A stretch of 64,000 nt of DNA from an uncultured Candidatus Saccharibacteria bacterium. GTDB taxonomy: Bacteria; Patescibacteriota; Minisyncoccia; Phycocordibacterales; UBA9973. The notes under the pieces were generated by a model. It searched no databases. It was not told the origin of the DNA and saw only the letters and a program-made list of their open reading frames with translations. The stretch covers positions 18,559-82,558 of the forward strand of contig CAYYSG010000001.1 in the NCBI GenBank assembly GCA_964474375.1, written 5' to 3'. The position numbers and the translations under genes are program-made. Below are positions 4,291-60,993 of this stretch, piece after piece. Each line of letters opens with the position of its first letter. Position 1 is the first letter of the stretch.

Positions 4291-4319
4291 TTGCTATTTT
4301 ATAACTTTTCTGGTATTAT
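4291..4319 (+). promoter_or_regulatory. Sigma70-like promoter for rpmH operon (TTGCTA-17nt-TATTAT), with the -10 ending 8 nt before the ATG
   Basis: ttgcta at 4291..4296, a 17-nt spacer, tattat at 4314..4319, and the rpmH ATG at 4328. This implies a leaderless or near-leaderless transcript. Confidence 0.4.
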
Positions 4320-4327
4320 CACCCTGT

Positions 4328-4462: not shown

Positions 4463-4467
4463 TAATT

Positions 4468-4785
4468 ATGCTTAAAAAAGAGTCAAAGCTAAACGCCGAA
4501 GACCTTTTAAAGCTTAAAAAGCAAGGTAAAAGAGTGTTTTCCACTCTTTTTTCTGTTACATATTTACCCGAAAAAACTTCTAAATATGCAGTTACTTGCC
4601 CTAAAAAGGTCTATAAAAACGCTGTGGACAGAAACCGTGCAAAAAGACGGGTTTTTTCGGTTATTTCTAAAATAACCCCACAAAATAAAGGTTTTTATGA
4701 ATTTTTTGTTAAAAATGACATAAATTCTCTAAAAATTGACGAAATTAGGTCAGAAATAGTTAGAATCCTATGTCCAAAATCGTAA
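4468..4785 (+). CDS. rnpA: Ribonuclease P protein component
   Basis: RnpA signature AVDRNRAKRR, and its position between rpmH and yidD. Confidence 0.85.
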   Translation: MLKKESKLNAEDLLKLKKQGKRVFSTLFSVTYLPEKTSKYAVTCPKKVYKNAVDRNRAKRRVFSVISKITPQNKGFYEFFVKNDINSLKIDEIRSEIVRILCPKS

Positions 4786-4997
4786 TTTGGCTTATAAATC
4801 AATATCAAAAGTATCTTTCCAGGGATACTGGAGTTTTTCCGTCCAAAACCCCAGTTTGTGTCTTCTACCCTACTTGTTCAGAATATTCAAAACAGGCTTT
4901 TATGAAGTTTGGATTTTTCAAAGCACTCTTTCTTTCAGTAAAAAGAATCTCAAGATGTCACCCTTGGCAAAAGAATCACTTTGACCCTTTGCCTTAG
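4770..4997 (+). CDS. yidD: Membrane protein insertion efficiency factor YidD
   Basis: Motifs CVFYPTCSEY...RISRCHPW (the conserved Cys/His motif of YidD). Overlaps the rnpA 3' end as is typical. Confidence 0.85.
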   Translation: MSKIVIWLINQYQKYLSRDTGVFPSKTPVCVFYPTCSEYSKQAFMKFGFFKALFLSVKRISRCHPWQKNHFDPLP

Positions 4998-5016
4998 CTC
5001 TGGTAGAATGCAAGCT

Positions 5017-5763
5017 ATGTGGAATACATTTATATATACACCAATATTAAACATATTGGTATTGCTTCTCTCTTACGTAACATTCGGCGACTTAGGTTTT
5101 GCTATAGTTATAATAACTATTTTAATCAAAGCATTACTCTTCCCTCTTTCTAAAAAGGCTACAGTTTCTCAGATTGAATTATCTCGAATACAAAGCGATA
5201 TCAATGCAATCAAAGCTAAAAAGCTTTCCAAAGAAGAAGAAGCTCGCGAAACATTTGCTTTGTATAAAGAAAAGAAGGTTAATCCTTTTTCTGGATGTCT
5301 TATTATGATAGTGCAGTTGCCAATAATCTTTGGACTATATTATGTATTTGCTCGAGGTTTGGATTTTTCAGTTGCTCCACTTTATTCTTTTGTGGAAGCT
5401 CCCGCTTATATAAACTCAATGTTTTTAGGGTTTATTGATTTACTAGCTGTTAAGTCTTTACCAATAGCAATCTTTACTGGTTTGACTCAGCTCGTACAAG
5501 CACATCTTTCCCCTACTCAGAAAATCCAAGCCAAGTCTAATTCTGGACAAACAGGATTTTCTGCTGACTTACAAAAAAGCATGCAAACTCAAATGAAATA
5601 CGTATTTCCTGTAATTGTTGGGTTTATTTCATACAAAATTCAGGCGGCTGTGGGTTTGTACTGGATAGTAAACAACCTGATTACAATAGTACAAGAAAGA
5701 GCTATTGCTAGGTCTGTTCATAAAAAGGATAATCTTGTAATAAAGTCAGAAATAGTTAAATAA
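5017..5763 (+). CDS. yidC: Membrane protein insertase YidC (short Oxa1-like form)
   Basis: Multi-TM protein with an LLFPLSKK...KEKKVNPFSGCLIMIVQLPI region like the YidC C1 loop / TM2 region. The ORF is open from 4981, and the start may be 5008 or 5017. Confidence 0.8.
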   Translation: MWNTFIYTPILNILVLLLSYVTFGDLGFAIVIITILIKALLFPLSKKATVSQIELSRIQSDINAIKAKKLSKEEEARETFALYKEKKVNPFSGCLIMIVQLPIIFGLYYVFARGLDFSVAPLYSFVEAPAYINSMFLGFIDLLAVKSLPIAIFTGLTQLVQAHLSPTQKIQAKSNSGQTGFSADLQKSMQTQMKYVFPVIVGFISYKIQAAVGLYWIVNNLITIVQERAIARSVHKKDNLVIKSEIVK

Positions 5764-5831
5764 GCTTGATTTATAAGCCTTATAAAAGTTAAAAACTTGA
5801 ATAAGGCTTTTTCTTATGCTACAGTCTTAAT

Positions 5832-6317
5832 ATGGTCAAAACTAATGCTGAAGCACAAGAATTTGTTAAAAACCTGCTAAACACCATAGATGCTAGCTAC
5901 GATAGCATCGAAACAGTGTTTGATGAGGATAGCGGTCTTACTACTATTAGTGTTAAATCAAAAGATGGACGGCTGCTTATCGGTAAAGACGGAGAAACCC
6001 TAAATGCACTATCGACTTTACTCCATAGATATTTAGAATCTGGACTAAAGGAAAATGAATCCCCTATTTCTATATCACTCGACGTTAACGATTTTCAAAA
6101 AAAGCATATTGAAGATATAAAAACCAAAGCTCATATGATGGCTGAACGTGCTAAATTCTTCAAATCTAGTATCGAGCTTGATCCAATGAATGGGTACGAG
6201 CGCAGAATCATTCATACATTTCTTGAGAAAGATAAAAATATTTTAACTGACTCGACAGGAGAAGGTAAAAACAGAAGAATTGTTATAACTTACACAGAAG
6301 ACAAAACCGCTATATAA
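5832..6317 (+). CDS. khpB: KhpB/Jag RNA-binding protein (Jag_N, KH, R3H)
   Basis: C-terminal R3H motif GYERRIIHTFL, and its position after yidC. Confidence 0.8.
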   Translation: MVKTNAEAQEFVKNLLNTIDASYDSIETVFDEDSGLTTISVKSKDGRLLIGKDGETLNALSTLLHRYLESGLKENESPISISLDVNDFQKKHIEDIKTKAHMMAERAKFFKSSIELDPMNGYERRIIHTFLEKDKNILTDSTGEGKNRRIVITYTEDKTAI

Positions 6318-7414: not shown

Positions 7415-8654
7415 AAGACCACAAGCTCATATTTTTTTTATTTATAAAGCTAATCAAATTACCGGAATTATTTATAGATGTTTTCCATACATCAATAGGA
7501 TTTTGGGCATCAGATGATATTTGGGACATTTCGCGAGCATTTAAATTCATAGTGGTATAACGAACGATTCCGTCATTTGTTTCTATTTCCCCGCTGTACC
7601 ATGCATCAGGATACAACACATTGTCGAAAGACTTTGGCACTGCACAAGTAAAAATAGTTTCATCAGAACTCCATGAACATTTTTCAACTAGACCCATTTT
7701 GCCTAACTGGCGCATTGTGCCATCTTTTAAATTATATGTAGACATAACCGGACCAGATTGCTCGGTCACTGCCCGCAGGATATAGTTTCCATCAGGTGAG
7801 ACTTTTGTGGTTAGGCCATTTAAATTCCCCCAGATTTTAGTTAGTTTTTTATTTTTTAGATCCAGGGTATAGGCAAACCCAGGTGCTAATTCTGTAGCTT
7901 TTGTTGTTAACAGTAGTTTTTCTTTGTTTATAAATTTAACGTGCCATTCACTAATAGGTGAAGAATAAACCAGCTCATCTTTAGCTGATTTTTCCATAAA
8001 TATACTAGAGCCATTTTGGTTTTTGCTAATGTATATAAATTCTCCGTCTTTAGCAAAGTCAAAAGAGATTATGTTGTCCGGCAATATTTTTACAGAATCC
8101 CTCCCTAGTGTTCCTAAGACTGATTTTTCTGTTATCATATCGGCATCTAAATATCTAAACAAAACCCTATTTCCATCTGGTGAAAAGTCAGCAAACAAAA
8201 CCCTAGGCAATGCCGTGTCGGATATTAAATAACTATTACTGTATTTAGGAATATAGTCATAAATATAACCATTTTCTCGGGATACATATCTAATAGCATC
8301 TATTTGGTCATATATTTTATTACCTTTTGCGTCGACGCCAGTTTCGCCGGCTATTTCGTCGTCTCTTCTTACTATAATAGAACCAGCTACGTTTTCAGCA
8401 ATGAGTTCTGGGTATCCAGTTGTATTTACTGCACTATCCCCCTCATCACCTCCACCAGGCAGTATGTCTCTTATAATGTCACCAATAGTACTGCCATCAT
8501 TATTACCAAAAGGTAAAAAATCTTTAGCTGTTATTTCAGTTATTTGGCCACTGTCTAGTTGTTTTTTTAGTGAGTTATTACGAATAACCATAAAACCAGC
8601 CATTCCTATTATTAGAATAACTAAAATTATTCGTATTAGTCTGCCTTTGTGCAT
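7404..8654 (-). CDS. Membrane-anchored beta-propeller protein (TolB/PD40-like repeats)
   Basis: N-terminal TM anchor (IRIILVILIIGMAGFMVI) and repeated SPDGNRVLF / SPDGNYIL PD40-like motifs. Confidence 0.5.
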   Translation of the reverse strand: MHKGRLIRIILVILIIGMAGFMVIRNNSLKKQLDSGQITEITAKDFLPFGNNDGSTIGDIIRDILPGGGDEGDSAVNTTGYPELIAENVAGSIIVRRDDEIAGETGVDAKGNKIYDQIDAIRYVSRENGYIYDYIPKYSNSYLISDTALPRVLFADFSPDGNRVLFRYLDADMITEKSVLGTLGRDSVKILPDNIISFDFAKDGEFIYISKNQNGSSIFMEKSAKDELVYSSPISEWHVKFINKEKLLLTTKATELAPGFAYTLDLKNKKLTKIWGNLNGLTTKVSPDGNYILRAVTEQSGPVMSTYNLKDGTMRQLGKMGLVEKCSWSSDETIFTCAVPKSFDNVLYPDAWYSGEIETNDGIVRYTTMNLNAREMSQISSDAQNPIDVWKTSINNSGNLISFINKKNMSLWSYEE

Positions 8655-10786: not shown

Positions 10787-12649
10787 CTAGTTTTGCTGTG
10801 CTTTATTTTTTTCAGCTTGAATAGCCAGAACTTGAGCTGGGTCAGATGTGATTATTTGTTCCTCTGTATAAGACGAAACTATTTTGATGGCTACGTGTTT
10901 TAGTCCTGCGAAAAATATCCCTTCCCCTACGTTGGCTTCTAGTAGTGTGTATTTTTCCGCATCGGTTAGATTAAATGCATCTTTTAGGACATCAATAGTC
11001 GTTGGGGACTGTTTTAGAAGCAGTTGCATTGAAGAGTTAGTTAAAATAGGTCTACCATATGGTGATTTTAGGAAGTCCTCCACGTCTTGTGTAATTGTAG
11101 CTAATCCAAGGTAATATTTACGTCCACGTTTTGCAATACTGTATAGGAAACTAGCTGTGTCTTCGTTTTTCATCATCCACCAAGCTTCATCCACTACCAT
11201 TAGTCTCTTTTTTAGATTCTTACGGATTTCATTCCATATGAAATGAGTAATTATATACATTGCTACAGGTTTTAATTCATCTTCCATATCACGTATTGAA
11301 AACACAACGAACTTCCGGTTTATGTCGACGTTACTTGGTTTGTTTAAGAATCCTGACCATGAGCCGGTTGTGAACTTTTCTAGCTTTGTAAGTACTGAAG
11401 AAGTTCCGTCCATACCAGCTAACACAACTGCAAAGTCGGACAATAGTGGTGGTTCAATAGTACTAAAGTCTGAATCAACGGTAATGTCCTTTAGGGCATA
11501 AGTCTCGGTGATTGCACGGTCGATAATAGCGTCTTCTTCGGGAGTTAGCCCACCCAGCATTACGCGAAATAGCCCCACTAGATTGATTGTATTTTGGCGG
11601 AGTACGTCTGCATTTGTTTCGTCTTTACTTGGGATCGGTAAATCAAAAGGATTTATATGGTGGTCAGATGATAGTGATACATTAAAATATCGCCCCCCTA
11701 CTGCGTCGGACAGGTATTCGTATTCTTTTTCCGGGTCGATAACTATAACATCAGTATCGAACATGAGTGAACGCAGAATTTCTAGTTTGGTTGCGAAAGA
11801 TTTACCAGAACCTGATTTTGCAAATGTTACAGAGTTATAGTTTTCCAATGAAAATCGGTCAAAAATAATAAGTGAATTATTATGCTGATTGATTCCATAT
11901 AAAATTCCTTTGTTGCCTGTTAGGTCAAACGAAACAAAAGGAAAAGTACTGGACAATGGTTCTGTGTTCATTTTTTGCATTACACGCAAATTGTCTTTTG
12001 CCATCGGGATGCTGGACAGGAATGCCGTGTCTTGCTGAAAAGTCGCTGGTTTGATGAATATCATTTGTGAATCCAGCTGACCTTTTATTTCGTTCTCGGC
12101 CTTGAATAGATCGGATTCATTTTCGGCATATATGTTGATATATAGTCCTACTTCGAACATTTTTTCTTGTGCTTGCTGCAAAGAATCGCGCAGTTGCTCT
12201 AAATCTCTATATGCTGATTCTAACATTGGGTCACGAACCATACCCTTGCTCTCTCTTTCGGATATTTGACTTTGGACTTCAGCTACCTTTTTCTGGAATT
12301 GGGACATTATTTTACCAGTATCTACTGGGGTTATGTTTATGGAAATATCGAAAACCCTGTCCAAGTTTATTATAGGTGTTAGCCAGTTGTCAGTTAGTAT
12401 ACTAGGATATCCTACAATATAGAATGAACGTACTATCATGTCCCCTAGATTAAGAGCAGTAGGCATTATCTGCAGTGCTGATGGGGCTATAATGTCTTGT
12501 AGTTCGAGCTGAGCTGAACTAAAGATTTCTTCTGGTCTAACAGACAAAGAACCAAGAACACTAGATGATTCTTTTTTGTTTCCGCCACCAAATATTTTTG
12601 AAAATATAGACATATTATTGGTTACTTTGCTTAGGGATATGACCAGCAC
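10787..12649 (-). CDS. virB4: VirB4/TrbE/TraC-family conjugation-type ATPase, C-terminal ATPase portion
   Basis: Walker A FAKSGSGKSFATK. ..HHINPFDL, Walker B LMVVDEAWWMM, and RGRKYYLGLATITQ. Overlaps the upstream partner ORF by 35 nt. Confidence 0.7.
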   Translation of the reverse strand: MLVISLSKVTNNMSIFSKIFGGGNKKESSSVLGSLSVRPEEIFSSAQLELQDIIAPSALQIMPTALNLGDMIVRSFYIVGYPSILTDNWLTPIINLDRVFDISINITPVDTGKIMSQFQKKVAEVQSQISERESKGMVRDPMLESAYRDLEQLRDSLQQAQEKMFEVGLYINIYAENESDLFKAENEIKGQLDSQMIFIKPATFQQDTAFLSSIPMAKDNLRVMQKMNTEPLSSTFPFVSFDLTGNKGILYGINQHNNSLIIFDRFSLENYNSVTFAKSGSGKSFATKLEILRSLMFDTDVIVIDPEKEYEYLSDAVGGRYFNVSLSSDHHINPFDLPIPSKDETNADVLRQNTINLVGLFRVMLGGLTPEEDAIIDRAITETYALKDITVDSDFSTIEPPLLSDFAVVLAGMDGTSSVLTKLEKFTTGSWSGFLNKPSNVDINRKFVVFSIRDMEDELKPVAMYIITHFIWNEIRKNLKKRLMVVDEAWWMMKNEDTASFLYSIAKRGRKYYLGLATITQDVEDFLKSPYGRPILTNSSMQLLLKQSPTTIDVLKDAFNLTDAEKYTLLEANVGEGIFFAGLKHVAIKIVSSYTEEQIITSDPAQVLAIQAEKNKAQQN

Positions 12650-13262
12650 TGTCCCCTGGGTTAAATGTTTTGTAATAAAGCTCGATCAAGCCTTCGGTGT
12701 TTAAGGGTACTGACCGTACTCCACAGCGGCCCAGAGTTTGCATTACGATACCTAGTCTTTGTTCTAGCTGGTTTCTTTTTTCATTCCAGTCTACTTCTTC
12801 TTCGGATTCTATTTTTTTTAAGCCCCCAACAGACCCAAAAAATTTTGAGAAAAATCCCCCAGTACGTATTAATGACTGACTATATGGTACAACTATATAA
12901 AAATGTTTTGACATTATGTTTACCCTGCTAGTTAGTTCACGAATAAATTCGATATATTCTCTGGTTTGGAATTTGAGCAAAGGCTCGTCTATTTTGTCGA
13001 GTCTTTCTTCTAGTGTTAGTAGGTATGGTCTAATATCGAATTTTCTGGACTGGACGACTATTTGAGTATCAAAATCGAGCGAATTTAATAGTGATTGGAA
13101 TTGTAATATTATAGACTTTTGTTCGTCTTGTGAGCGCAAAGTAAAGTTAATAGCGGTACACAGTAGTACAGCTCTTAGTCCACCATCATTAAGTTCCACC
13201 ACCCCGTCACGGATGTGTTTTATCGGTACAAATGACTGACTGCTTGGTGCTTTGATTGACAT
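12615..13262 (-). CDS. VirB4-family N-terminal domain, encoded separately in a different frame
   Basis: PIKHIRDGVVELNDGGLRAVLLCTAINFTLRSQDEQKSII resembles the VirB4 N-terminal region. Together the two ORFs total 835 aa, close to a typical VirB4 (~800 aa). Confidence 0.5.
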   Translation of the reverse strand: MSIKAPSSQSFVPIKHIRDGVVELNDGGLRAVLLCTAINFTLRSQDEQKSIILQFQSLLNSLDFDTQIVVQSRKFDIRPYLLTLEERLDKIDEPLLKFQTREYIEFIRELTSRVNIMSKHFYIVVPYSQSLIRTGGFFSKFFGSVGGLKKIESEEEVDWNEKRNQLEQRLGIVMQTLGRCGVRSVPLNTEGLIELYYKTFNPGDSAGHIPKQSNQ

Positions 13263-13263
13263 A

Positions 13264-13692
13264 TTATTTTACTGATTGACCGCTAGATTGGTCTCGGTCC
13301 ATTACGTCTAGACTCCATGCCAATGCTTCTATCTTACCACGGTCTAGGTTTTTCGGTGTAGTTAGGACAGGCTTTTTTGTGGCTATTCCTTTGTTATCCA
13401 TGTCTTTTTTGTGTTCAGGTCTTTGCCAGACATACATACGGTTTTTTGTGTAGTGTGTTAAAAATGCTTGGAACATTAGAATAGCTGGACGAGAATTCGG
13501 CTTCCAGAATGAAAGACTAATAGCTAAGAATAAAAATAAAGCTATAAGTATAAAACCAAAAGTAAAACCCAGATATGTATATGTTACATAAGCCAGGCCA
13601 ACTCCCCCACCTAGATAAATAAATTGCTTAAAAGTCAAAGGCCCAATGACTTTGTCTTCTATGTCTAAAAATCTTGGCATTTGGAATTGCAT
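13264..13692 (-). CDS. VirB3/PrgI-like small membrane protein
   Basis: 142 aa. IEDKVIGPLTFKQFIYLGGGVGLAYVTY then a TM helix, matching the VirB3/PrgI-type pattern (..GLT.rQ...), and located immediately upstream of virB4. Confidence 0.45.
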   Translation of the reverse strand: MQFQMPRFLDIEDKVIGPLTFKQFIYLGGGVGLAYVTYTYLGFTFGFILIALFLFLAISLSFWKPNSRPAILMFQAFLTHYTKNRMYVWQRPEHKKDMDNKGIATKKPVLTTPKNLDRGKIEALAWSLDVMDRDQSSGQSVK

Positions 13693-13733
13693 ACTAATAT
13701 AAGTATATCATAAGAAAATCCCAGAATATATTA

Positions 13734-14405
13734 TTATTCTGGGATTTCGCGGTATAGATCATTTTTCCTGTCACCTGTGGTTACTTTGGGTAAACTAGTT
13801 TCTATTTTGGTGCGGTCTAGTACTTGGTTTTCGTTCTTACTTTTTAGTATATCTTCCCAGGAATCTGATTTTAGGGCAGGTATGGAATTGCTATTCATCT
13901 CTGCTACTTTTTCATGGCTTAACATGCCACTAGGTCTAATGTCGCTGGTTACTCTTGAAACTGGTGCTGGGGCTACCCCTTCAGGTCTTGGAACATCTTG
14001 CATTTCGATGTAGTCGGATAGCTCTTTCTCAATCATGTCGTCGTTTTTCCAGTTGTTCTCTAGTACTGCGACTCTTTCTTTGGTTAGAATATTGGCAAAG
14101 ATATAGTCATGTATACCACCACGGACAGAACTGTTTACATTTGGCAATGCCTGGGTTATTTCATCTTTAACTTCACTTGGTCTAATGAAACCCAGTAATG
14201 TCATTGTAGTTATGTATTCTATCTCACTAACATATTCAGGTGCTAAACTGTAATTTTTAACCATATTTAGAAAGTCATTTGCATAACTTTGACCTAGAAC
14301 ATAGTTCCGTAATTCCGGCTGAATATTTTTAAGCCTATCCATTATTTGAGAAACTTCTTCTTGGGATTCATTAGGTATTAAGTTGATTTTATTATTTTCA
14401 TCCAT
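13734..14405 (-). CDS. Hypothetical protein, T4SS-like cluster
   Basis: 223-aa ORF with no recognisable motifs, gene-dense context, same strand as the cluster. Confidence 0.4.
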   Translation of the reverse strand: MDENNKINLIPNESQEEVSQIMDRLKNIQPELRNYVLGQSYANDFLNMVKNYSLAPEYVSEIEYITTMTLLGFIRPSEVKDEITQALPNVNSSVRGGIHDYIFANILTKERVAVLENNWKNDDMIEKELSDYIEMQDVPRPEGVAPAPVSRVTSDIRPSGMLSHEKVAEMNSNSIPALKSDSWEDILKSKNENQVLDRTKIETSLPKVTTGDRKNDLYREIPE

Positions 14406-14408
14406 AAA

Positions 14409-17400
14409 TTATGCTTTAGGTGGTTGGTATTTGTCAGTTGTGTCGACCTTTGTGTCTTTGTCTTGCCAGCTTCTACCATAGTTTTCATAGAATTTTCTGT
14501 CATACTCTGCCATTCTTACTAGCCCTGTAGCTATTGCTGTTGGTGCTGCTACCCAGCCGAATGGAGCACCTAGTACTGATCCTTTTGCTACGTCGGTATG
14601 TAAGAATGAATCATTGAGTACTGCACCTAATTTGCTTCTTGTTCCTGACGGGCTACTTTTTAGTTGATATGTCATGTTTTCTATATCACGAGCTGCTTCG
14701 GCTACATCTTTCAGAGCCTTGTCTTTTGCTTCACCTTCCATGGAATCTATATCGATTGAATTATAGACTGCCTCGTAAATTCTATTTTTAGCATGTTTAT
14801 TGAGAATCTCGGTGTCTTTTTTATACTTTTTAATGATCTCTTTCTTTTTGTCTTCGTCGGCTCCTGCCCATTCTTTGTCAGTTTTTGCTTTGTTTTCAAC
14901 TTCATTCATTATTTCCATAATGTCAGACCTTTTTGCCATTTTCTCGTCGGTCTCTGCTTCTTCTAGGTCTTTTCCAATTTTTTCTTTATATACGTCAAGA
15001 CCAGTTTTACGTTGGAATATTTTACCAGATTTTTCTCTTTGGAATTGCTTATATCTATCTGCTCTGTCAGTTTTAACTTTTTCCATTGCTTCTTCTGCAC
15101 CTTTTATTCCGATTACATGCATAGCTTTACCTGTTTTTTCATCTACGTATGTATAGCCATCACCTTTTAAGGCATTTAGCTTGTCTTTCTCTATTTTAAT
15201 TTCTTTTCTAATTTCTTTTTCTGCGTTTCCTAGTTTTGTGGCTTCTTTGTTTGCGTCTGTTTGGCCGTCTTCGTGTTTCCTTATTTCTTCTTTTAAGGCG
15301 TTCTTATCTTCTTCCAGTTTAGCTTTTTGACCTTCAAGTAAGACTTTTTTAGCAGTATCTGTCTCAGCGTCTATTTCTTTTTGTTTTTCTTTAATAAGAT
15401 TTTCTTGTTCGTTGACTTTTCTTGTTTTTGTTGATATTTCAGCTGCGTGGTCTCTGGCTACTTGTTGGTAAGAACGCATTTCAGAGAATTTTTCATCAGC
15501 ACGTTCTTTTAGGTCATTAACTATGTCTTCTTGGTTATTTGCTGCACGTTCTGTTTTTTTCTTAACATCTTCCATTTTGTTGTACATTTCTTGGTCGAAC
15601 CCTAGAGAGTCTTCAAACTTTTTAATTCTCTCTGTTTTTCTTTGCATCTGTGCCATGTATCCCCCAGCAGTTGTAGCTGTTTGGAATTGTTTACCAAAGA
15701 AAGGTATATAGTTTGTACCAGCTTGCATATTAACCCCTGTGAATCCTGATACTGCGCTGGCAGCTTTGTTTTGACGTAAATCAAAGCTACCTTTACGTGT
15801 CATATCGAGTGCTCCTACTTTTAGTCTTGCCCATGTGTTGCCTTCGGCTGCTTTTGTCATTAGTTTTTCTCCTGCGGTACTTTGCATATAACGACTAGCT
15901 CTTTTACCTAGTGCATTTCTACCAGCCCAGGCTGCGCCACCTGTAGCTATTGCTGCACCAAATCCAGCTACGCCAGACGCTACTGCTACTAATTTATCCC
16001 CTGCTAGTTTAGCAATGCTCGAAGTCAGGCCTTCTGTCATAGATTTTATTAAATATAAGAATCCAATTATCAGCATAAAAGGTATGATCAAACTCATCCA
16101 CCATTCTATACCCACAACTCCGTCGCCAAATACCGCTTTAAAAGGATTGTTCTTTACAAATAGTACTAGTATCATCATTAAAACTAGGAATATTGGAGCC
16201 TTGAATGCATCTTTTAATAGTCCTTGCATCCATTCTTCAAAACCAACCATTTTTAGACCACTTCTTTGTCCTGATGATAACGACAATGAAAACACTGCTA
16301 AGGGTGAAAGTATAATTGCAAATATAAGCCCTATAATACGGTATATGAACTGCAAAGCTATTTTTAGGAATATCAGCATTGCTATGACGTTAAATATCAC
16401 ACCCATTAGGAGTATCATGAAGACCGTTCCTTTGTTTTCGTCTACTTTGAATGTAGCAGCGTTGTCATCAAGTCCATCTAAGATGATTTTTTGGGGGTCG
16501 TAACCTTCGGCGGCAGTAGATGAAAGACTAATAGCTTTACCATCTGCCCCGTCGGTACGACTAAACACGTTGTAGTATAGTTGGCGCGCAGTAATGTTCG
16601 ATATATCTATAACTATTGTTGTTAGCGGGAATGAAAAGTTAATAACCGTAGCCACTATCAGAGTGTTAACTATTAGTTGCTTAGTACCCTGCCCTATGTT
16701 TAAAACTAGTTTGAATGCTAAATATAGCAACATAAATATAAAGAACAAGTTACATACATCACGAATGAATCTCCAGCCGTCTTTTATATACTGTGCATTG
16801 TATGAATCTGGCTGGATACTATAAGCCAAAACAAAGTCCATGATGCTACCCGCTACACCCAGTAAGAATGCTGTTGGTACAAAAACCATATAGTAAAACC
16901 CAACAACAAGACATCCAGTAAACCAAGTGCCAATGTCTTTCGCATCACATTTAGGCATCCAAGCCGGACCACTACCAGCACTATTGCCTGAGCTTATAAG
17001 GACTGCCCCACCTCTGGATGTTTGTGTTATTTGATCTGGTATTGATACCGAAACAACAGGAGTATATCCATTGTCGTCAAACCAAGGGTCGTGTTCGTTA
17101 GCAAAAAGTCTAAAATAATAAGTTTTGTTTTTTTCAACTTGTAGTGGTTCTAGTCCAAAAACCATACCAGTTTTTGCATCGCTTATGATAGGTGAATCTA
17201 CTTTTTCACCGAATATATACGGGTTTAAGTTTATCTCTTTTACGTCATTACCTCCTACTTTTGGATCAGTGTTACTAGTTGAATATAAAAGATAAAATCC
17301 ATATCCACCCTCATTTGCTGTTCGGGTATCTATTTCTGGGTTATTAAAGCCTTTTGTAAAATTATCCCAGTCACCTCCTGGAATGTCTCCAGGAGATGCT

Positions 17401-18662
17401 TTGCGATTATTATCTACATCATTCCATGCAATAAAATCTGTACTATCTGGCTTGTCTATAAGCATAGCAATATCAATGTCTAAAACAGGCTGACTACCCG
17501 ACATTGCTGGTTCGAGTTTTTTAATTGAATAGTCTTCCATTACGTAATTTGCATTTGCAAATTTGTATTGAATATTTTGTTTAGTGCTTGTGTTTAACAA
17601 GGTCCATGTTACTTGAGTTCCAGAATTTGCATTTGGGTCAAAAGCCATTTGAGCTTTTGCGCTAGACCATTCTGTTGATAGCTGGTAGGATCCATCTGTT
17701 TTAGGTTCTGGGTCTGTTGTTTGTATCAATTCAGATCTAGACAATGTATACAGAGTTCGGTCGCTATTATCTTGAAAGTAATTTACTTTAAAACTCCCCT
17801 TTTTTTGTTTAGGTATGTCTGCACTCAAATGAAGGATGTTTTTATTTGTCTTACCTTCTACTTTTAATGTTCCAACCATATTCTGGGTTACATCAAAACT
17901 AGAATAGTCTTTTTCTCTAAATTGGCCCCATTCAACATCAAAACTATTACCAGTTCCTTTTTGTGCTTTTATAAAAACAACATGATCTTTTATGTTTTTA
18001 TAAATAGTTGTACCGATAACTGTATCAGCTAATTCTTCAACCGCATTTTTATCAGAAGTCTTTTCTGTCCGGATAGTCTTTACTCCTTGCCTGTCTTCTG
18101 TTGTATATGTAAATTTATAATGCCCCCACTCATCAAAACCACCATTATCCTCAATACATTTTTTAAAAAAAGTAGAAGGTATTGAAAATGTAAAATCTTG
18201 TTTTAAATACCCCCTTGCTTCGGTGTTCGCTAGATTTAGGCTGGCAATAGATGTTTTGTCGGGGCTTGTAAGACTAGGGTTAGATACGAGCGTTACATTA
18301 CTAGCAGAACAACCTGTTTCTATATCTCCTGGAACAAATCCATCTCTTATTTCGTATTCAATTTTATCAATAGAATTTATTCTATGGTTAGGGTCAGTAA
18401 AAGCTGAAACTTTTATATTAGTTCCATCAGTAATACCTGTGACAATAAGAAAAGCGTCTGCATTTTTAGCATCAACATATTCTCTTTTTTCTACTTTTGG
18501 TGTTTGTGCTGATACTGTATTAGCCCTGACACTGATTTTGTTGTCAGAAAAGTTTATTATGAAAGGTGAAAAAAGCTGGAAGATAACCAGAAAAATAGCT
18601 ATAAATCCAAAAGCTTTTTGCTTCATACTGTATGTATAAATTGTAACATATTTTTTAAACAT
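14409..18662 (-). CDS. Giant polytopic membrane protein, VirB6/TrbL-like core with ~560-aa N-terminal extracytoplasmic region and Gly-rich/coiled-coil Lys-Glu-rich C-terminal tail
   Basis: 1417 aa. N-terminal signal/TM, then a multi-TM block (~570-870, e.g. LFFIFMLLYLAFKLVLNIG, FMILLMGVIFNVIAMLIFL, WWMSLIIPFMLIIGFLYLI). Followed by a Gly-rich segment (GVAGFGAAIATGGAAWAG) and a long K/E-rich coiled-coil. Confidence 0.4.
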   Translation of the reverse strand: MFKKYVTIYTYSMKQKAFGFIAIFLVIFQLFSPFIINFSDNKISVRANTVSAQTPKVEKREYVDAKNADAFLIVTGITDGTNIKVSAFTDPNHRINSIDKIEYEIRDGFVPGDIETGCSASNVTLVSNPSLTSPDKTSIASLNLANTEARGYLKQDFTFSIPSTFFKKCIEDNGGFDEWGHYKFTYTTEDRQGVKTIRTEKTSDKNAVEELADTVIGTTIYKNIKDHVVFIKAQKGTGNSFDVEWGQFREKDYSSFDVTQNMVGTLKVEGKTNKNILHLSADIPKQKKGSFKVNYFQDNSDRTLYTLSRSELIQTTDPEPKTDGSYQLSTEWSSAKAQMAFDPNANSGTQVTWTLLNTSTKQNIQYKFANANYVMEDYSIKKLEPAMSGSQPVLDIDIAMLIDKPDSTDFIAWNDVDNNRKASPGDIPGGDWDNFTKGFNNPEIDTRTANEGGYGFYLLYSTSNTDPKVGGNDVKEINLNPYIFGEKVDSPIISDAKTGMVFGLEPLQVEKNKTYYFRLFANEHDPWFDDNGYTPVVSVSIPDQITQTSRGGAVLISSGNSAGSGPAWMPKCDAKDIGTWFTGCLVVGFYYMVFVPTAFLLGVAGSIMDFVLAYSIQPDSYNAQYIKDGWRFIRDVCNLFFIFMLLYLAFKLVLNIGQGTKQLIVNTLIVATVINFSFPLTTIVIDISNITARQLYYNVFSRTDGADGKAISLSSTAAEGYDPQKIILDGLDDNAATFKVDENKGTVFMILLMGVIFNVIAMLIFLKIALQFIYRIIGLIFAIILSPLAVFSLSLSSGQRSGLKMVGFEEWMQGLLKDAFKAPIFLVLMMILVLFVKNNPFKAVFGDGVVGIEWWMSLIIPFMLIIGFLYLIKSMTEGLTSSIAKLAGDKLVAVASGVAGFGAAIATGGAAWAGRNALGKRASRYMQSTAGEKLMTKAAEGNTWARLKVGALDMTRKGSFDLRQNKAASAVSGFTGVNMQAGTNYIPFFGKQFQTATTAGGYMAQMQRKTERIKKFEDSLGFDQEMYNKMEDVKKKTERAANNQEDIVNDLKERADEKFSEMRSYQQVARDHAAEISTKTRKVNEQENLIKEKQKEIDAETDTAKKVLLEGQKAKLEEDKNALKEEIRKHEDGQTDANKEATKLGNAEKEIRKEIKIEKDKLNALKGDGYTYVDEKTGKAMHVIGIKGAEEAMEKVKTDRADRYKQFQREKSGKIFQRKTGLDVYKEKIGKDLEEAETDEKMAKRSDIMEIMNEVENKAKTDKEWAGADEDKKKEIIKKYKKDTEILNKHAKNRIYEAVYNSIDIDSMEGEAKDKALKDVAEAARDIENMTYQLKSSPSGTRSKLGAVLNDSFLHTDVAKGSVLGAPFGWVAAPTAIATGLVRMAEYDRKFYENYGRSWQDKDTKVDTTDKYQPPKA

Positions 18663-35688: not shown

Positions 35689-35997
35689 ATGGAAAACACA
35701 GAAAACAATACACCTATAGTAAACAAAATGCCGGAATTTAATAACGATACTATTTTAGTTAGTGGTTCCAAAAAACTAACAAAGAAAAAAAGAATCATTA
35801 TAATAATTGCTATTTTTGTACTTATTTCATTACTTGTAACTTATTTATTTTTGGACAATATTAAGCCAGCTGAAAGAATTCCAACTCTTGAAGAAAAAAT
35901 CCAAAACATTGAAAATGTTGTAAATGAAACAGCTCAAATAGGTTTGCCTCCTGAAAATACACAATTAGACATTATGAATTATAACCAAGCTGAATAA
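35689..35997 (+). CDS. Small membrane-anchored protein
   Basis: One TM helix (IIIIAIFVLISLLVTYLFL). Confidence 0.4.
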   Translation: MENTENNTPIVNKMPEFNNDTILVSGSKKLTKKKRIIIIIAIFVLISLLVTYLFLDNIKPAERIPTLEEKIQNIENVVNETAQIGLPPENTQLDIMNYNQAE

Positions 35998-50327: not shown

Positions 50328-50780
50328 TTATTGAGTTTTTTCCCTGGAACGAAGGATTCTTAAGAATTCTTCGTATCTACCATCCTGTTTACCAGGACGG
50401 TCGATTGCCCGACCTTCTGATTTAAAATATGGGTCAAGCAGGTACTCATGTTTTTGATTTAAAATACCAAATAATTTCCCTACCCATGTTCGACTTTGCC
50501 TGACACGGATCAAATAAAGACTTTTCATGGTTTCTTTATCCAAAGGCCTATTTACAGTTTTTATTAGGATATTTACTCCCTCACTGTGCCTGTGGCAGTC
50601 TATTATTTCTGCAAAATACTCCTTTTGGGTAGTCTTCGTGTCATATTCGCAAGAGGTTTCTTCTATTACAATGTTGTAAAAAAAATCCTCTTCTTGGTAG
50701 CTTCGTATCGTTAAGGAATCTTTTCTTAGGTCGTGCCTAATTAGTTCTTTTGCTTCTTTGATTTCTTGTTGTGTACTCAT
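50328..50780 (-). CDS. Hypothetical protein in tRNA island
   Basis: 150-aa ORF, no recognisable motifs. Confidence 0.4.
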   Translation of the reverse strand: MSTQQEIKEAKELIRHDLRKDSLTIRSYQEEDFFYNIVIEETSCEYDTKTTQKEYFAEIIDCHRHSEGVNILIKTVNRPLDKETMKSLYLIRVRQSRTWVGKLFGILNQKHEYLLDPYFKSEGRAIDRPGKQDGRYEEFLRILRSREKTQ

Positions 50781-50847
50781 GTTGATAATTTTTTAAAGGT
50801 TAAACCCAGGTTTCCCTGGGTTTTGAAAATGTTTAGTGGTTGTTGAT

Positions 50848-51408
50848 TTAGCTACTCGCCATCTCGCGAGGATCGTTTTTAGGGTTTAATGCCCCAGTTT
50901 CGTTTTCATGTGCGGGTAGTCCAAGGATTTCTACGATTTCATCTTTTGTAGCATAGAGCTTTAGCTTTTCTGCGATTTCGTCGTTAGAAAGATTTACTTC
51001 TTGTCCAGTCACTTTTCGCCATAGCTTTATTCGGAAGTCTGGGTCACCATTCTTTCGGCTTGTTGCTTTGGCTAAGAAATTTGGGTCTACTACGTAGTCG
51101 CCTTTTTTCCTTTTGTTTTTTGCATTAAATCCATCTGTGCCCCAAAAGGGTATCAGTTTGAATTTTTCTGTAATTTCTGTCGACAAATCATTTTTTGCTT
51201 TCACAAAAATGTTTCTTTCTACTCCATTACTTTTACCGATTTGCATAATTATCGGTACTTCTTCGGGTATGGTACCCATGTTTACCTTTGTTTTGCCTGG
51301 TCCGATGACTTTATAGCTCTCGCTAACAAGCATTTCCTCGGCTTTGTTTGTTGTTGGATTTGGGAACATTATCCCCAATTCTGCTGATTTTTTTTGACTT
51401 TTTCTCAT
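50848..51408 (-). CDS. Hypothetical protein in tRNA island
   Basis: 186-aa ORF, no recognisable motifs. Confidence 0.4.
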   Translation of the reverse strand: MRKSQKKSAELGIMFPNPTTNKAEEMLVSESYKVIGPGKTKVNMGTIPEEVPIIMQIGKSNGVERNIFVKAKNDLSTEITEKFKLIPFWGTDGFNAKNKRKKGDYVVDPNFLAKATSRKNGDPDFRIKLWRKVTGQEVNLSNDEIAEKLKLYATKDEIVEILGLPAHENETGALNPKNDPREMASS

Positions 51409-51502
51409 ATATGTTTAAAACTTGTTTGTATATTAACCTATTTTTAGAATTTTGTCAAAAATGCAAAAAGTCACATAAAATGTGACTTTTTGCATAATAT
51501 TG

Positions 51503-51573
51503 TCGGGGTGCAGGGAATCGAACCCTGATCTCACGGTCCCAAACCGCGTATACTACCACTGTACTACACCCCG
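51503..51573 (-). tRNA. tRNA-Pro (anticodon TGG)
   Basis: Reverse complement CGGGGTGTAGTACAGTGGTAGTATACGCGGTTTGGGACCGTGAGATCAGGGTTCGATTCCCTGCACCCCGA. C1-G72 pair typical of tRNA-Pro. Anticodon loop TTTGGGA. Confidence 0.85.
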
Positions 51574-51688
51574 ATAGTTATAGCAGTTTAGCATACTTTC
51601 CTATTTTTTCAATGCCTATTTGTTTTTGGATTTATTTATGGTATAAATAAGATTAATTTCAACACAATTTCAATATAATATTCAGCTT

Positions 51689-52138
51689 ATGGTAAACAAT
51701 TTCAACTATCAGACCAATGTTTCCTTTATTCTTTTAGAGGACAAAAAACCAAAAAACAAAGAGCTATTTGCTATTTGTGAAGTCAAAGACATTGCTAATT
51801 ATGGCAATTCTTTCAATTATGCACCGGTATTCTGGTTCCCTAATTGCAAGATTACTGAAAAAGAAGCTAAAATCTTGAGACTAGAGAAGTACGTCAATGA
51901 GTCCAGAAAACATCCCGACGGTTATATAATTTCGGGATCTAAGTCAACTCGTCAGAGTTTTGCAAGAGCGGTAGTTTTTGCGATTAGATGGTTTGAAAAA
52001 ATTCATCGAGAAAAAAAACCGGTAATTGCTAGTCAGCCTAAACAAAACCAACGTTTCCCTGGCCCAGCGTCTCAGGCTTTTGTTTCAGGAAAAGCCCAGT
52101 TTTCAAGAAAAAGAACTTCTTCGTCTAAAAAGAAGTAA
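51689..52138 (+). CDS. Hypothetical protein
   Basis: 149-aa ORF with a basic Ser/Lys-rich C-terminus, followed by a terminator. Confidence 0.4.
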   Translation: MVNNFNYQTNVSFILLEDKKPKNKELFAICEVKDIANYGNSFNYAPVFWFPNCKITEKEAKILRLEKYVNESRKHPDGYIISGSKSTRQSFARAVVFAIRWFEKIHREKKPVIASQPKQNQRFPGPASQAFVSGKAQFSRKRTSSSKKK

Positions 52139-52155
52139 ACTTTAAATCATTTTTA

Positions 52156-52183
52156 AAAACGCCATGTTTGTGGCGTTTTTTTA
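52156..52183 (+). terminator. Rho-independent terminator
   Basis: acgcca-tgtttg-tggcgt hairpin plus ttttttt. Confidence 0.65.
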
Positions 52184-52714
52184 TTAGACACATCTTTTCT
52201 GCTCTAACAGACATATTTTCTATTAGACATTTATAAAAGACATTAGTAAATGTCTGATATAAGCTATTGCGTCTTTTATTAAATTAATGTCCTATATACC
52301 CTAAAAATACCCTTATTTTTTAACAAAACTGTGCATAAAGTTGGGGATTAAGGGTATAACTGCCCTATTTTAATGTCTTTTATAATGGACAAAGTATGTT
52401 TTTTATGTCTTTTATAACGGACATTGATGTCTATTAGTTCTATAAAAAGCTTATAAAATAAGGCTTTTATAACGGACATTATCTTTTTGTATAACAAAAC
52501 AATATTTTAATAATGGAAATGGGTCTTTTTTTGTGTCAAATGTGTTTCACGTGAAACATATTTATCTGTTACACACCTGCCTTGCCGGTAGGCAGGTGAA
52601 ACTTTAGCTAAAATGGCATAAAACCAGTTATTTGTTTCATGTGGAACATTGATATACGGCAAGTATGGTCTATTTATAAGCTGTGTATTGTGCCACGTGT
52701 AACACCAGTATATA

Positions 52715-53125
52715 ATGGTTTGGATGCCAAAGGTATTTACTTCAAATACTCAAAAAATAGGTAAACTAGGTGAAGAATTAGCCAAAAGGTTTCTCATGAA
52801 ACACGGTTATTCTGTCTTAGAGGAAAATTATACTAAAAAGTATGGTGAAATAGACCTAATAGCTAAAAAGGATGGAATAACACATTTCATAGAGGTTAAA
52901 AGCATCGTTTCACATGAAACTAGTAATGCTGTGCCACGTGAAACATCTAACTATGATCCTTTGTCGAATGTGCACCCAGGTAAATTACGAAGATTATCCA
53001 GGGTTATACAGGTGTATCTAGTTACACATGAAACACTCAATTGGCAATTTGATGTAATTACTGTAAAAATTGATGAAAAGAATAGGGTAGGTCGAGTTAC
53101 TCATATAAAAGATATTGTTATATAG
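52715..53125 (+). CDS. yraN: YraN/UPF0102 family endonuclease-like protein
   Basis: GEELAKRFLMKHGYSVLEENY..GEIDLIAKKDGITHFIEVK...QFDVITV, the conserved UPF0102 core. Contains peptide repeats HETSN/RETSN/HETLN encoded by a repeated DNA motif. Confidence 0.7.
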   Translation: MVWMPKVFTSNTQKIGKLGEELAKRFLMKHGYSVLEENYTKKYGEIDLIAKKDGITHFIEVKSIVSHETSNAVPRETSNYDPLSNVHPGKLRRLSRVIQVYLVTHETLNWQFDVITVKIDEKNRVGRVTHIKDIVI

Positions 53126-53181
53126 TTGTTACGCATGAAACAGAAAATCCCCGTAATAGGGGATTTTCTTAATGGTTTTTG

Positions 53182-53437: not shown

Positions 53438-53671
53438 ATGAAAAGACTATATAGAAGCGATAAAAATAAAGTAATTGCTGGAGTAATGGGTGGAATAGGT
53501 GAATATGCAAATGTTGACCCTGTAGTTATTCGTGCATTTTATTTGGCTATTACTATCTTTAGTGCAGTTTTCCCTGGGATAATTGTTTATTTATTGCTTA
53601 TACTAGTAATACCTAAACATCCTAATTTCAAGGAAGCTCATGCTGAAGAAGTAAATAATGCAAATCAATAA
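53438..53671 (+). CDS. PspC-domain membrane protein
   Basis: KRLYRSDKNKVIAGVMGGIGEYANVDPVVIRAFY is the PspC family signature, followed by a TM helix. Confidence 0.8.
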   Translation: MKRLYRSDKNKVIAGVMGGIGEYANVDPVVIRAFYLAITIFSAVFPGIIVYLLLILVIPKHPNFKEAHAEEVNNANQ

Positions 53672-55229
53672 TTCTCAAATCCCAGAATTTGTGCGATATG
53701 TTTCCGAGACTTTAGAGTCTGCGGGTTTTTCGGCATATTTAGTGGGCGGGTGTGTTAGGGATTTGTTAATAGGCCGAATTCCTAAAGACTTTGATATTAC
53801 GACAAGTGCCACGCCGGAAGACATTATAAAAATATTCCCAAAGACTGTATATGAAAATGTTTTTGGGACTGTTCTCGTGGTGGATGAAGATTTGAAAGAC
53901 TACGCAGATTCTAAAAAAACAGAAGGTCCTCGGGTCAGTTCACCAGACCATTCTGTTGTTTTTAAACCTGCTTCGTCTGATTTTGGTAATAATGATAGTG
54001 TTTTTAGTGTTGAAGTTACTCCTTTTCGCAAAGAAGGCAAGTATACTGACAGGCGTCATCCTGACAATGTAGTTTTTAGTAAAGATATAAACGATGATTT
54101 GTCTCGTCGCGATTTTACTATTAACGCCATGGCCTATAGGTTAGCTACTAATGAGTTAATTGATTTGTTTAATGGTCAGCCTGACCTAGATTCAAAGACC
54201 GTGCGTACTGTGGGTGACGCCGATGAAAGATTCAATGAAGACCCACTGCGTCTAATGCGAGCGGTTAGGTTTGCTACCGAGCTTGGTTTCAGTATAGAAG
54301 CAAATTCTATGATGGCTATTGCTGAAAATTCAGAATTACTCAAACATATTTCTATCGAAAGAATACGTGACGAGTTTATAAAAATAATAAATTCAGATTC
54401 TCCAGCCAGCGGCATTGAAATGCTTCGCAGGTTTAGTCTTTTGCCTTATATAATACCTGAATTACTAGACGGTGTAGGTTGTGTTCAGGGCGGGGCACAC
54501 AAATATGATGTTTACGAGCATTTGTTACATGCACTCCAGCATGCATCTGACAAAAAGTTTAGTTTTCATATTAGACTCTCCGCACTATTTCATGACATAG
54601 GTAAGCCTAAGAGTCGTAGAGAATCTAATGATAAGAATAAAAAACAATATACTTTCTATGGTCACGAAGTCATCGGTGCCAAAATGGCCAAGAAGATAAT
54701 GGAAAGAATGAAATTCCCTAAGAACGATGTGGATTTAGTTTATAAATTTGTACGTTATCATATGTTTTTCTCTGATACCGAAGTCATAACTCTTTCACCA
54801 GTTCGTCGTATGATAGCTAACGTTGGTGTGGATCATATTTGGGAACTCATGCAAATTAGGGAATGCGACCGTGTTGGTATGGCTAAAAATGAAGCCCCGT
54901 ATCGTCTGCGTAAATACCACGCCATGATTGAACAGGCTCTGCGTGACCCAATATCCGTAAAACAACTAAAAATCAATGGTGATAGTTTAAAAGACGCTGG
55001 TATTAACCCTGGTCCCAGAATGGGCTGGATACTATTGGCACTGCTAGAAGAAGTAATCGAAGACCCATCATTAAACACCGAAGAATATTTGCTAGGCAGG
55101 GTAGCAGTGTTAAACAAACTAACCGACATAGAGTTACGCAAATTAGGTGACGAAGCCCGCAGTAAAAAAGACGAACTAGAAGAAGAAGAAGTTTCCAGAC
55201 TACATGCGAAACATAATGTAAAAAAATAA
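53658..55229 (+). CDS. cca: CCA-adding tRNA nucleotidyltransferase with HD domain
   Basis: GGCVRDLLIGRIPKDFDITTSATPE (class II nucleotidyltransferase head) and HD motif LFHDIGKP. Confidence 0.85.
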   Translation: MQINNSQIPEFVRYVSETLESAGFSAYLVGGCVRDLLIGRIPKDFDITTSATPEDIIKIFPKTVYENVFGTVLVVDEDLKDYADSKKTEGPRVSSPDHSVVFKPASSDFGNNDSVFSVEVTPFRKEGKYTDRRHPDNVVFSKDINDDLSRRDFTINAMAYRLATNELIDLFNGQPDLDSKTVRTVGDADERFNEDPLRLMRAVRFATELGFSIEANSMMAIAENSELLKHISIERIRDEFIKIINSDSPASGIEMLRRFSLLPYIIPELLDGVGCVQGGAHKYDVYEHLLHALQHASDKKFSFHIRLSALFHDIGKPKSRRESNDKNKKQYTFYGHEVIGAKMAKKIMERMKFPKNDVDLVYKFVRYHMFFSDTEVITLSPVRRMIANVGVDHIWELMQIRECDRVGMAKNEAPYRLRKYHAMIEQALRDPISVKQLKINGDSLKDAGINPGPRMGWILLALLEEVIEDPSLNTEEYLLGRVAVLNKLTDIELRKLGDEARSKKDELEEEEVSRLHAKHNVKK

Positions 55230-60379: not shown

Positions 60380-60512
60380 AATATGAACACATTATAGCAT
60401 TTTTGGGAATTCAGTGTTAGTTCAAATATTTTGACCATCAGGGTAATAACGGGTAATCTTTTTGTTGGTTTATAAAATATATTTGTGTATACTAAAATAA
60501 ATTTGCAGCATT

Positions 60513-60695
60513 ATGAATACAGGTAATACACAATCAAAAAGAGGTGAAGAAATAGAATCAAAAGAAAGCCTAAAACAAACCTACCCCAACGGTGACAAGG
60601 CAGAGTATAAAAAAAGTCTCAAATATGGAGTTATATCTTTTTTGTTGACTTTAGTTTTTTGGGGTTCTGTTATCTATCTAATTAGTTTAATTTAA
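60513..60695 (+). CDS. Small hydrophobic protein
   Basis: 60 aa, one C-terminal TM helix. Confidence 0.3.
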   Translation: MNTGNTQSKRGEEIESKESLKQTYPNGDKAEYKKSLKYGVISFLLTLVFWGSVIYLISLI

Positions 60696-60708
60696 ATATC
60701 TATACAAA

Positions 60709-60822
60709 ATGAATAATAAAAAAGAATTTATCTTGAGTAAAATGGGACTCCTTTTGTTGGGCTTTACTGTAATAGGTTTGTCTATTTTACTGCTTTGTAA
60801 GATTTTTGAAAATATCAAATAA
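60709..60822 (+). CDS. Candidate 37-aa hydrophobic peptide (below ORF-track cutoff)
   Basis: MNNKKEFILSKMGLLLLGFTVIGLSILLLCKIFENIK, followed by a terminator. Confidence 0.2.
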   Translation: MNNKKEFILSKMGLLLLGFTVIGLSILLLCKIFENIK

Positions 60823-60842
60823 TTTTATACTTTATTTATAAA

Positions 60843-60874
60843 GCACCGCGCAGAATTGCGCGGCTTTATTTTTG
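60843..60874 (+). terminator. Rho-independent terminator
   Basis: ccgcgca-gaat-tgcgcgg hairpin plus ctttatttttg. Confidence 0.65.
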
Positions 60875-60993
60875 TGTCCAGTGTGGTATAGTGCACATAT
60901 ACAAGTAGCGCAGTTATTTTCATAGGTAGTACTGAAAGCCAATTAGGTGTTTCAATACTAAAATGAGAATAACTGCAAAAATAAATAATAAGT

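Follow-up and report, generated by a model that had tools for sequence, protein, structure and literature searches.

The element described here lies in a 64,000-nucleotide stretch of an uncultured Candidatus Saccharibacteria contig (CAYYSG010000001.1, assembly GCA_964474375.1), referred to below as the window, and is centered on a 576-bp non-coding spacer (52139-52714) between a 149-aa hypothetical gene (51689-52138) and yraN, a gene of the UPF0102 family. The spacer region is best read as an origin-proximal centromere of Paceibacteria joined to a DnaA/iteron assembly platform, a reading given a probability of roughly 0.6. It would be composed of two joined cis-acting modules: a centromere of eight parS sites (52543-53142) and an assembly platform (52186-52480), in which short iterons flank three tandem DnaA-box-like 9-mers on both sides. 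The locus is considered origin-proximal because dnaA, dnaN, rnpA, yidC, and jag are 48 kb off.

The parS part of this reading is the secure one, and the interval 52543-53142 is described as a predicted ParB-binding parS array. Its first member, parS1 (52543-52558), reads TGTTTCACGTGAAACA with zero mismatches, which is the consensus chromosomal parS of structural and biochemical studies of ParB; it matches the 16-bp inverted-repeat consensus TGTTNCACGTGAAACA perfectly, and its 14-bp core, the perfect palindrome GTTTCACGTGAAAC (52544-52557), is invariant in six close genomes. The initial annotation had seen this palindrome two bases further to the right and had listed a partition site among its options without naming parS; that option is borne out, as the palindrome heads a conserved array of which seven degenerate relatives, with two or three mismatches and reaching to 53142, had been missed. 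With up to three mismatches allowed, nine parS-like 16-mers occur in the 64 kb against 0.37 expected, and eight of the nine fall within these 600 bp, the sole parS cluster of the window, 48 kb from dnaA/dnaN. Three sites lie in the spacer, four inside yraN, and one just past the yraN stop codon (53127-53142). parS2 (52633-52648; TGTTTCATGTGGAACA, two mismatches) is found in a variable stretch where relatives have other parS-like sites, while parS3 (52689-52704; TGTGCCACGTGTAACA, three mismatches) coincides in part with TTGTGC (52688-52693), the -35 element of a likely yraN promoter that has TATAAT as its -10 element at 52711-52716, with a probable start codon, ATG, at 52724; both parS3 and the TATAAT are conserved in relatives. 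The TATAAT ends only 7 nt ahead of this ATG, and the short distance, together with a -35 element inside parS3, suggests that the yraN mRNA is leaderless or near-leaderless and that ParB may occlude the promoter.

Relatives of the locus were found through the CCA-adding enzyme and are Patescibacteria metagenome-assembled genomes labeled Paceibacterota, Nomurabacteria, or "Saccharibacteria" (their loci carry L numbers here). Most of approximately 40 relatives (L003-L041), down to about 50% CCA-enzyme identity, likewise have a parS cluster at their yraN/CCA-enzyme locus, often with 8-15 sites, some of them perfect, and in some lineages within the CCA gene. For instance, the CCA-adding enzyme gene holds five to six parS-like sites in L018 (6001-7482), L032, L037, and L048, and none in the window; in L057, positions 7560-8235 include tandem units of approximately 220 bp with two perfect parS each, and a run of N marks an assembly gap among the units. 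The chromosomal context, namely yraN, tRNA-Gly/Arg, the CCA enzyme, and a xerC-like gene, is kept across genomes whose proteins are 40-75% identical. Among 55 related metagenome loci, none has a parS cluster up to 10 kb from dnaA, and the sole site with at most two mismatches lies inside dnaA of L242. In the literature library searched, no paper combined parS, ParB, and Patescibacteria, so that parS appears to be undescribed in this group.

The sites inside yraN are written into its reading frame. Those at 52906, 52930, and 53020 encode IVSHET, AVPRET, and LVTHET, respectively, and so share the motif V(S/T/P)(R/H)ET, while the site at 52788, in a different reading frame, encodes RFLMKH. The motif occupies a variable-length linker after an EVK motif (one to four copies) and a second place near the C-terminus. 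YraN proteins of the clade (window, L003-L059) carry one to four such in-frame insertions, each a parS, with a linker length specific to each gene; the yraN genes that have no parS-like sites (L044, L029, and L013) have a short linker and no VSRET-type motifs. Codon choice was counted in 37 VSRET-type motifs, which are not phylogenetically independent: Val is GTT in 33 of 37 (background 0.40), Arg is CGT in 21 of 23 (background 0.24), the second codon ends in A in 32 of 37, and Glu is GAA in 35 of 37. The codons are thus skewed toward parS, and the motifs are under selection at the DNA level, not the protein level alone. YraN has been reported as a D-loop nuclease of transformation that acts with ComM; therefore, yraN looks like a carrier of parS rather than a partner in its function.

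To the left of the array, the initial annotation had counted about eleven copies of (A/G)GACAT or its complement within 300 bp. The observation is real and far above chance, and it is the interpretation that needs refocusing. Ten copies are exact (both strands, 52209-52479) and two are near copies (AGACAC at 52186-52191 and GGACAA at 52387-52392); the next richest 300-bp stretch of the 64 kb holds three RGACAT copies (Poisson P for at least ten, 3e-11). Each of the 15 other spacers of at least 100 bp holds zero or one RGACAT, so the motif density is not a general property of spacers in this AT-rich DNA. Of three 18-bp units tgtcttttataaYggaca listed earlier, two are exact (52374-52391 and 52406-52423), while the third (52461-52478) has two mismatches, AGGC replacing TGTC; the unit has no other match in the window (0.24 expected by chance), and all three exact and eight of the 24 one-mismatch matches of the 11-mer RTGTCYTTTAT in the window fall in the spacer. 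Once oriented, the copies yield a 13-bp iteron consensus, TTATAAnRGACAT, present 12 times in the window, with a GACAC core in one of the 12 and mostly GACAT in the rest.

The left iteron block (52186-52292) comprises forward GACAT/GACAC cores starting at 52187, 52210, 52226, and 52239, two reverse copies at 52250-52255 and 52287-52292, and a degenerate reverse copy, GCGTCTTTTAT (52269-52279), that reads GTGTCTTTTAT in relatives; the iteron positions of this block are conserved in six genomes. It is followed on the forward strand by CCCTTATTTT (52310-52319), representing a second conserved motif class (CCTTAT/ATAAGG). The three DnaA-box-like 9-mers (52330-52359) lie on the reverse strand and are TTATGCACA (52338-52330, one mismatch), TAATCCCCA (52350-52342, two mismatches), and TTATACCCT (52359-52351, three mismatches), which read TGTGCATAA, TGGGGATTA, and AGGGTATAA on the forward strand. 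The right iteron block (52373-52479) contains ATGTCTTTTATAATGGACAA (52373-52392), ATGTCTTTTATAACGGACAT (52405-52424), ATGTCT (52427-52432), and TTTTATAACGGACAT (52465-52479), the last of which is conserved in all six close genomes with one substitution in L004. A short palindrome, AGCTTATAAAATAAGGCT (52448-52465), includes an inverted copy of the CCCTTATTTT motif; its arms, CTTAT and ATAAG, are invariant in the six genomes and its center is variable, and CTTAT-N3/4-ATAAG recurs in L018 and L023, with a degenerate CTTAT-N4-GTAAG in L059. The entire stretch (52186-52480) is AT-rich, with 24-30% GC. The possibility that the iterons are weak DnaA boxes was rejected for the window genome on inspection, as ATGTCCGTT fits four of nine positions; TCTGGACAT of L057 is nearer to a DnaA box, with six of nine.

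The spacer was aligned among the six close genomes, which have CCA enzymes 65-76% identical to that of the window. The spacer core has a mean pairwise identity of 63%, not far below that of the coding sequence on either side (67-70%), and its alignment has 36% invariant columns. The invariant blocks follow one order: iterons, CCCTTATTTT, the three 9-mers, more iterons, the CTTAT-N-ATAAG palindrome, TTTTATAACGGACAT, and parS1; the 9-mer block is almost invariant and the CCCTTATTTT columns fully so. Across 12 genomes, no words are more enriched than the k-mers of the iteron, the DnaA box, and CCTTAT; for those of the iteron, the enrichment is 20- to 30-fold, and CCTTATT and CCCTTAT are enriched in eight to nine of the 12. 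The iteron-like repeats of the initial annotation are therefore real and conserved, and their 13-bp consensus changes in step between lineages: five genomes have 12, 10, 7, 13, and 8 copies with a lineage-specific consensus, in which the A/T-rich half is TTATAA-nR, TTCAAA-AC, or TCTG-, and this matches what is expected when a protein and its sites co-evolve.

The module is also recognizable in more distant relatives, where perfect TTATCCACA boxes are found at the equivalent central position in L018, L023, L039, and L059. In L023, one reverse iteron at the far left precedes six forward copies (five of the AAAACGACAT type and one AAAAGACAT), the core consists of GTTATACCC and a perfect GTTATCCACAG, and the right side has one forward iteron followed by six reverse ones. 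L039 has four DnaA boxes between eight iteron copies, L018 and L059 have the same module elements, and L057 shows five perfect parS and then six DnaA boxes interspersed with TCTGGACAT. An inversion of yraN (L004 and L006) or its location on the other side (L023 and L018) leaves the module next to parS.

In the proposed mechanism, the eight parS sites would nucleate ParB, and ParB clamps would spread over nearby DNA and be moved by ParA, with the loading of SMC by ParB also possible, as in the standard ParABS mechanism. The platform would be bound by DnaA together with a sequence-specific protein, the specificity of which has drifted along with its sites between lineages, and the resulting complex could couple partition to initiation or organize the centromere, comparable to DnaA at the parS region of Caulobacter. 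Several points weigh against this reading. There is no ParA or ParB gene or domain among the open reading frames (ORFs) of the window or in any fetched locus, and no ParB signature motif in the window or loci L001-L064, so that a cognate ParB has to be assumed. Five of the eight parS sites have three mismatches and may bind weakly, and DnaA binding is uncertain because the boxes have one, two, and three mismatches. No candidate gene for the iteron-binding protein is consistently adjacent, the upstream genes differing even among close relatives, and YraN, as a reported transformation nuclease, is an unlikely binder. The coupling of partition and initiation is suggested by analogy. The 149-aa upstream ORF was considered as the iteron binder and discarded, since it matches no Pfam domain and its conservation is limited to L005 and L008.

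The strongest competing explanation holds that the spacer is oriC itself, 48 kb from dnaA, with DnaA on the central boxes, unwinding in the AT-rich iteron DNA, the iteron binder as co-initiator or regulator, and parS alongside. The spacer does offer conserved DnaA boxes in AT-rich non-coding DNA adjoining parS; its equivalents in L039, L057, L059, and L044 contain three to six good boxes, and in L044 it adjoins dnaA. Genes diverge from it in many relatives, while in 17 related metagenome loci, the dnaA island (jag-yidC-rnpA/dnaA-dnaN) is placed between converging gene blocks (left flanks, 115 kb on the forward strand and 0 on the reverse; right flanks, 77% on the reverse). With replication from 52.3 kb, 71% of the coding bases of the window would be co-oriented with it, as compared with 36% from dnaA. 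The GC skew corrected for orientation rises across the spacer in 11-12 of 14 loci.

The boxes themselves point elsewhere. In the window, DnaA boxes are densest in the 173-bp spacer between dnaA and dnaN (21% GC), with four boxes at up to one mismatch and nine at up to two; on the reverse strand, which is the coding strand of dnaA, this spacer reads TTATCCATAATCCACA-GGC-TTA ATA GAA CTA ATA just upstream of dnaN. Known basal unwinding modules have the order boxes, GC cluster, and DnaA-trios, and because the order is the same here, this spacer looks like an unwinding site. A comparable arrangement (TAATCCACATAATCACAC-CC-ATAATAGTAATAATA) recurs in distant relatives with only approximately 54% DnaA identity. 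When at least three TTATCCACA boxes with up to one mismatch are sought, the iteron spacer of the window has one only, while the equivalent sites in L039, L044, L057, and L059 and the dnaA-dnaN spacer of the window have at least three. After TTATGCACA, the reverse strand reads GTT TTG TTA AAA, which is only weakly trio-like. The trio pattern matches AT-rich DNA too readily, and the dnaA-dnaN spacer suits it better than the iteron spacer does.

Skew was analyzed by 1-kb profiles, third-codon-position counts, and orientation-corrected regression in the window, 14 spacer-centered loci, and 17 dnaA-centered loci, and the results conflict, the weak signals being confounded by gene orientation and orthologous gene content. 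The step at dnaA is at least as large as that at the spacer, both estimates being confounded; AT3 skew has no switch near 52 kb; and the cumulative GC-skew minimum of the window, at approximately 43 kb, tracks gene orientation. Gene orientation at first appeared to favor the spacer as origin, given the converging blocks around the dnaA island; however, it flips from block to block in these genomes, where long co-oriented stretches alternate, and it was discounted as a poor guide to the origin. With the densest boxes and a trio-like run at dnaA-dnaN and skew analyses that are not decisive, the spacer is unlikely to be oriC and the classical origin is probably elsewhere. A bolder version, in which Paceibacteria chromosomes replicate from the spacer and not from dnaA-dnaN, by plasmid-like initiation through an iteron-binding initiator or co-initiator with DnaA, fused to the centromere and leaving dnaA at a point of convergent transcription, is held to be distinctly improbable.

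The likely classical oriC is found at 2668-2840 and 4197-4328. In the first interval, between dnaA and dnaN, the boxes TGTGGATTA/TATGGATAA overlap, another box is a perfect TTATCCACA, and a run resembling trios lies beside dnaN, while the second, between dnaA and rpmH, adds the three boxes TGTGGGTAA, TGTGTATAA, and TGTGGAATG; a similar box-plus-trio arrangement occurs in the distant relatives L191 and L237. Positions 6326-43219 form a 37-kb run of genes almost exclusively on the reverse strand that point to dnaA, and genes likewise converge on both sides of the dnaA island in the 17 related metagenome loci (L188-L264), which is odd for an origin region.

Alternatively, as the initial annotation also proposed, the iteron block could be an ordinary multi-operator region, where a factor, perhaps WhiA-like, regulates yraN, a leftward transcript, or both through the GACAT sites, with parS adjacent by chance. 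A promoter-like site (52510-52539, reverse strand; TTGACA, 18 nt, CATTAT; 10 of 12 matches), predicted from sequence and partly conserved, points leftward from parS1; the yraN promoter overlaps parS3; and WhiA homologs bind GACAC or GACACGCC, with some iteron copies in the window and relatives reading GACAC. WhiA is known to recognize GACAC in Streptomyces and Mycobacterium and to influence chromosome segregation and cell division in Gram-positive bacteria, including chromosome segregation in Bacillus; as the iteron binder, it is only a lead from motif resemblance. However, at least 12 sites of mixed orientation over 300 bp go far beyond the usual need of an operator, neither an inversion of yraN nor its placement on the other side parts the module from parS and the DnaA boxes, and no conserved ORF or RNA follows the leftward promoter-like site, all of which makes an operator region a poor bet.

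The initial annotation had also considered a structured non-coding RNA and a plasmid or phage iteron origin, and neither has held up. The spacer is long and conserved and has stable hairpins, as an RNA gene might, but Rfam at gathering scores returns four tRNAs only for the whole window, relaxed matches for the spacer (E of at least 0.06) are far below threshold and at chance level, and RNAalifold on six genomes and both strands gives a positive, that is, penalizing, covariation term with at most two pairs showing compensatory change; the "pairs" are invariant and arise from inverted iterons, and the conserved blocks are repeats of each other, the hallmark of DNA bound by proteins, so an RNA is very improbable. 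Scarcely any weight is left to a relic of plasmid, phage, or integrative-element DNA (an iteron origin with par, or attachment-arm sites near tRNAs), for which the nearby tRNA genes and tyrosine recombinase and the differing genes upstream of the spacer might speak: the chromosomal context is the same across relatives, no Rep-like gene is nearby, BLAST found no match in 72,556 plasmid and 50,697 phage records, and matches of a 15-mer iteron in viral contigs are isolated, single, and judged to be chance. A plasmid-type iteron replicon has direct 17-22-bp iterons, regular spacing, and a rep gene; the repeats here are 13 bp, mixed in orientation, and irregularly spaced, and the candidate was rejected. 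The ORFs adjoining the spacer match no Pfam domain, nor are they conserved from one relative to the next.

The spacer also contains two hairpins. The GC-rich inverted repeat CACCTGCC-N9-GGCAGGTG (52574-52598) is present as first described and folds at -16.8 kcal/mol (z = -2.7); it has no U tract and is conserved in L004 only. At 52155-52180, on the forward strand, the stem AAAAACGCCA/UGGCGUUUUU followed by a U run (-13.1 kcal/mol, z = -4.1) is the plain intrinsic terminator of the upstream hypothetical gene and borders the module from outside.

The window belongs to a compact bacterial chromosome of approximately 37% GC and 93% coding density. It encodes dnaN (1579-2667, reverse strand), dnaA (2841-4196, reverse strand), rpmH/rnpA/yidC/jag (4329-6317, forward strand), yraN (start 52715 or 52724, end 53125), and the CCA-adding enzyme (53658-55229), together with type IV pilus genes, nusA, tig, clpP, rny, hup, four tRNAs, a XerC-like recombinase, rpsO, and pnp. 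The spacer is long and non-coding for such a genome, as had been remarked, but it is not alone in this: a second long spacer upstream of pnp (60380-60993; 614 bp, 29% GC) contains no RGACAT copy. From tRNA-Pro to the spacer (50328-52138), small hypothetical ORFs that differ among otherwise syntenic close relatives (L003-L008) form a local hypervariable patch. Type IV secretion-like genes (VirB4/TraG-like ATPase, PrgI-family, and TraL-like) are located at 10787-18662 and 35689-35997 with a 1417-aa ORF that has no Pfam domain among them, and may be part of an apparatus for conjugation or DNA uptake.

Chromosome replication and segregation have hardly been studied in the candidate phyla radiation (CPR), since nearly all of its members are uncultured. 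The locus provides a concrete and conserved centromere for a large Paceibacteria clade, an unusual packing of parS into a protein-coding gene by in-frame VSRET insertions under DNA-level selection, and a reference point by which CPR genome assemblies can be oriented and checked. The 13-bp iteron array with its co-evolving specificity predicts a new DNA-binding protein beside DnaA and ParB, which, if the co-evolving system is true, would bind TTTTATAACGGACAT and have an ortholog in the L023 lineage that prefers TTCAAAACGACAT.

Among known systems, the parS array belongs to a very well-known kind, the chromosomal parS/ParB (Spo0J) centromeres of B. subtilis, Caulobacter, and Thermus, with which it shares the 16-bp palindrome, a clustering of sites that is probably near the origin region, and the placement of some of them within genes, as with the first parS of B. 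subtilis, which is in spo0J. Compared with these ParABS centromeres, the locus here is unusual in being denser (eight sites in 600 bp), in its embedding in coding sequence by in-frame VSRET-type insertions in yraN (and in the CCA gene in relatives), and in having no adjacent parAB. The parS region of Caulobacter crescentus binds DnaA (Mera et al., 2014, cited after the review PMC6399470), and the centromere locus of V. cholerae chromosome II (rctA/parS2) binds RctB. These are likewise centromeres with initiator sites that link partition and initiation; in the present locus, the DnaA sites are predicted and sit within the array of a second iteron. oriC regions may also carry arrays for a second regulator, namely CtrA in Caulobacter Cori, Spo0A boxes in B. 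subtilis, and HP1021 in H. pylori. Such regions (for review, see PMC4285127) likewise have DnaA boxes interleaved with another short motif in AT-rich non-coding DNA, whereas the locus here is 48 kb from dnaA and its motif fits none of those regulators.

Plasmid iteron origins and centromeres (P1, F, RK2 oriV, and R1 parC) are similar in having repeats around a core, DnaA boxes, and an adjacent par, and the six forward iterons on the left and six reverse on the right in L023 recall R1 parC; in contrast to them, the repeats here are shorter (13 bp), mixed, and irregular, lie in a syntenic chromosomal context, and have no Rep or ParR gene near them. With WhiA sites, the iterons have the core pentamer GACAY in common, while their commonest core is GACAT with a required A/T-rich 5' extension, and WhiA sites are dispersed at promoters, not in twelve-copy arrays. 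The iteron/DnaA-box platform is thus a variation on two known themes, that of initiator sites at a centromere and that of regulator sites at an origin.

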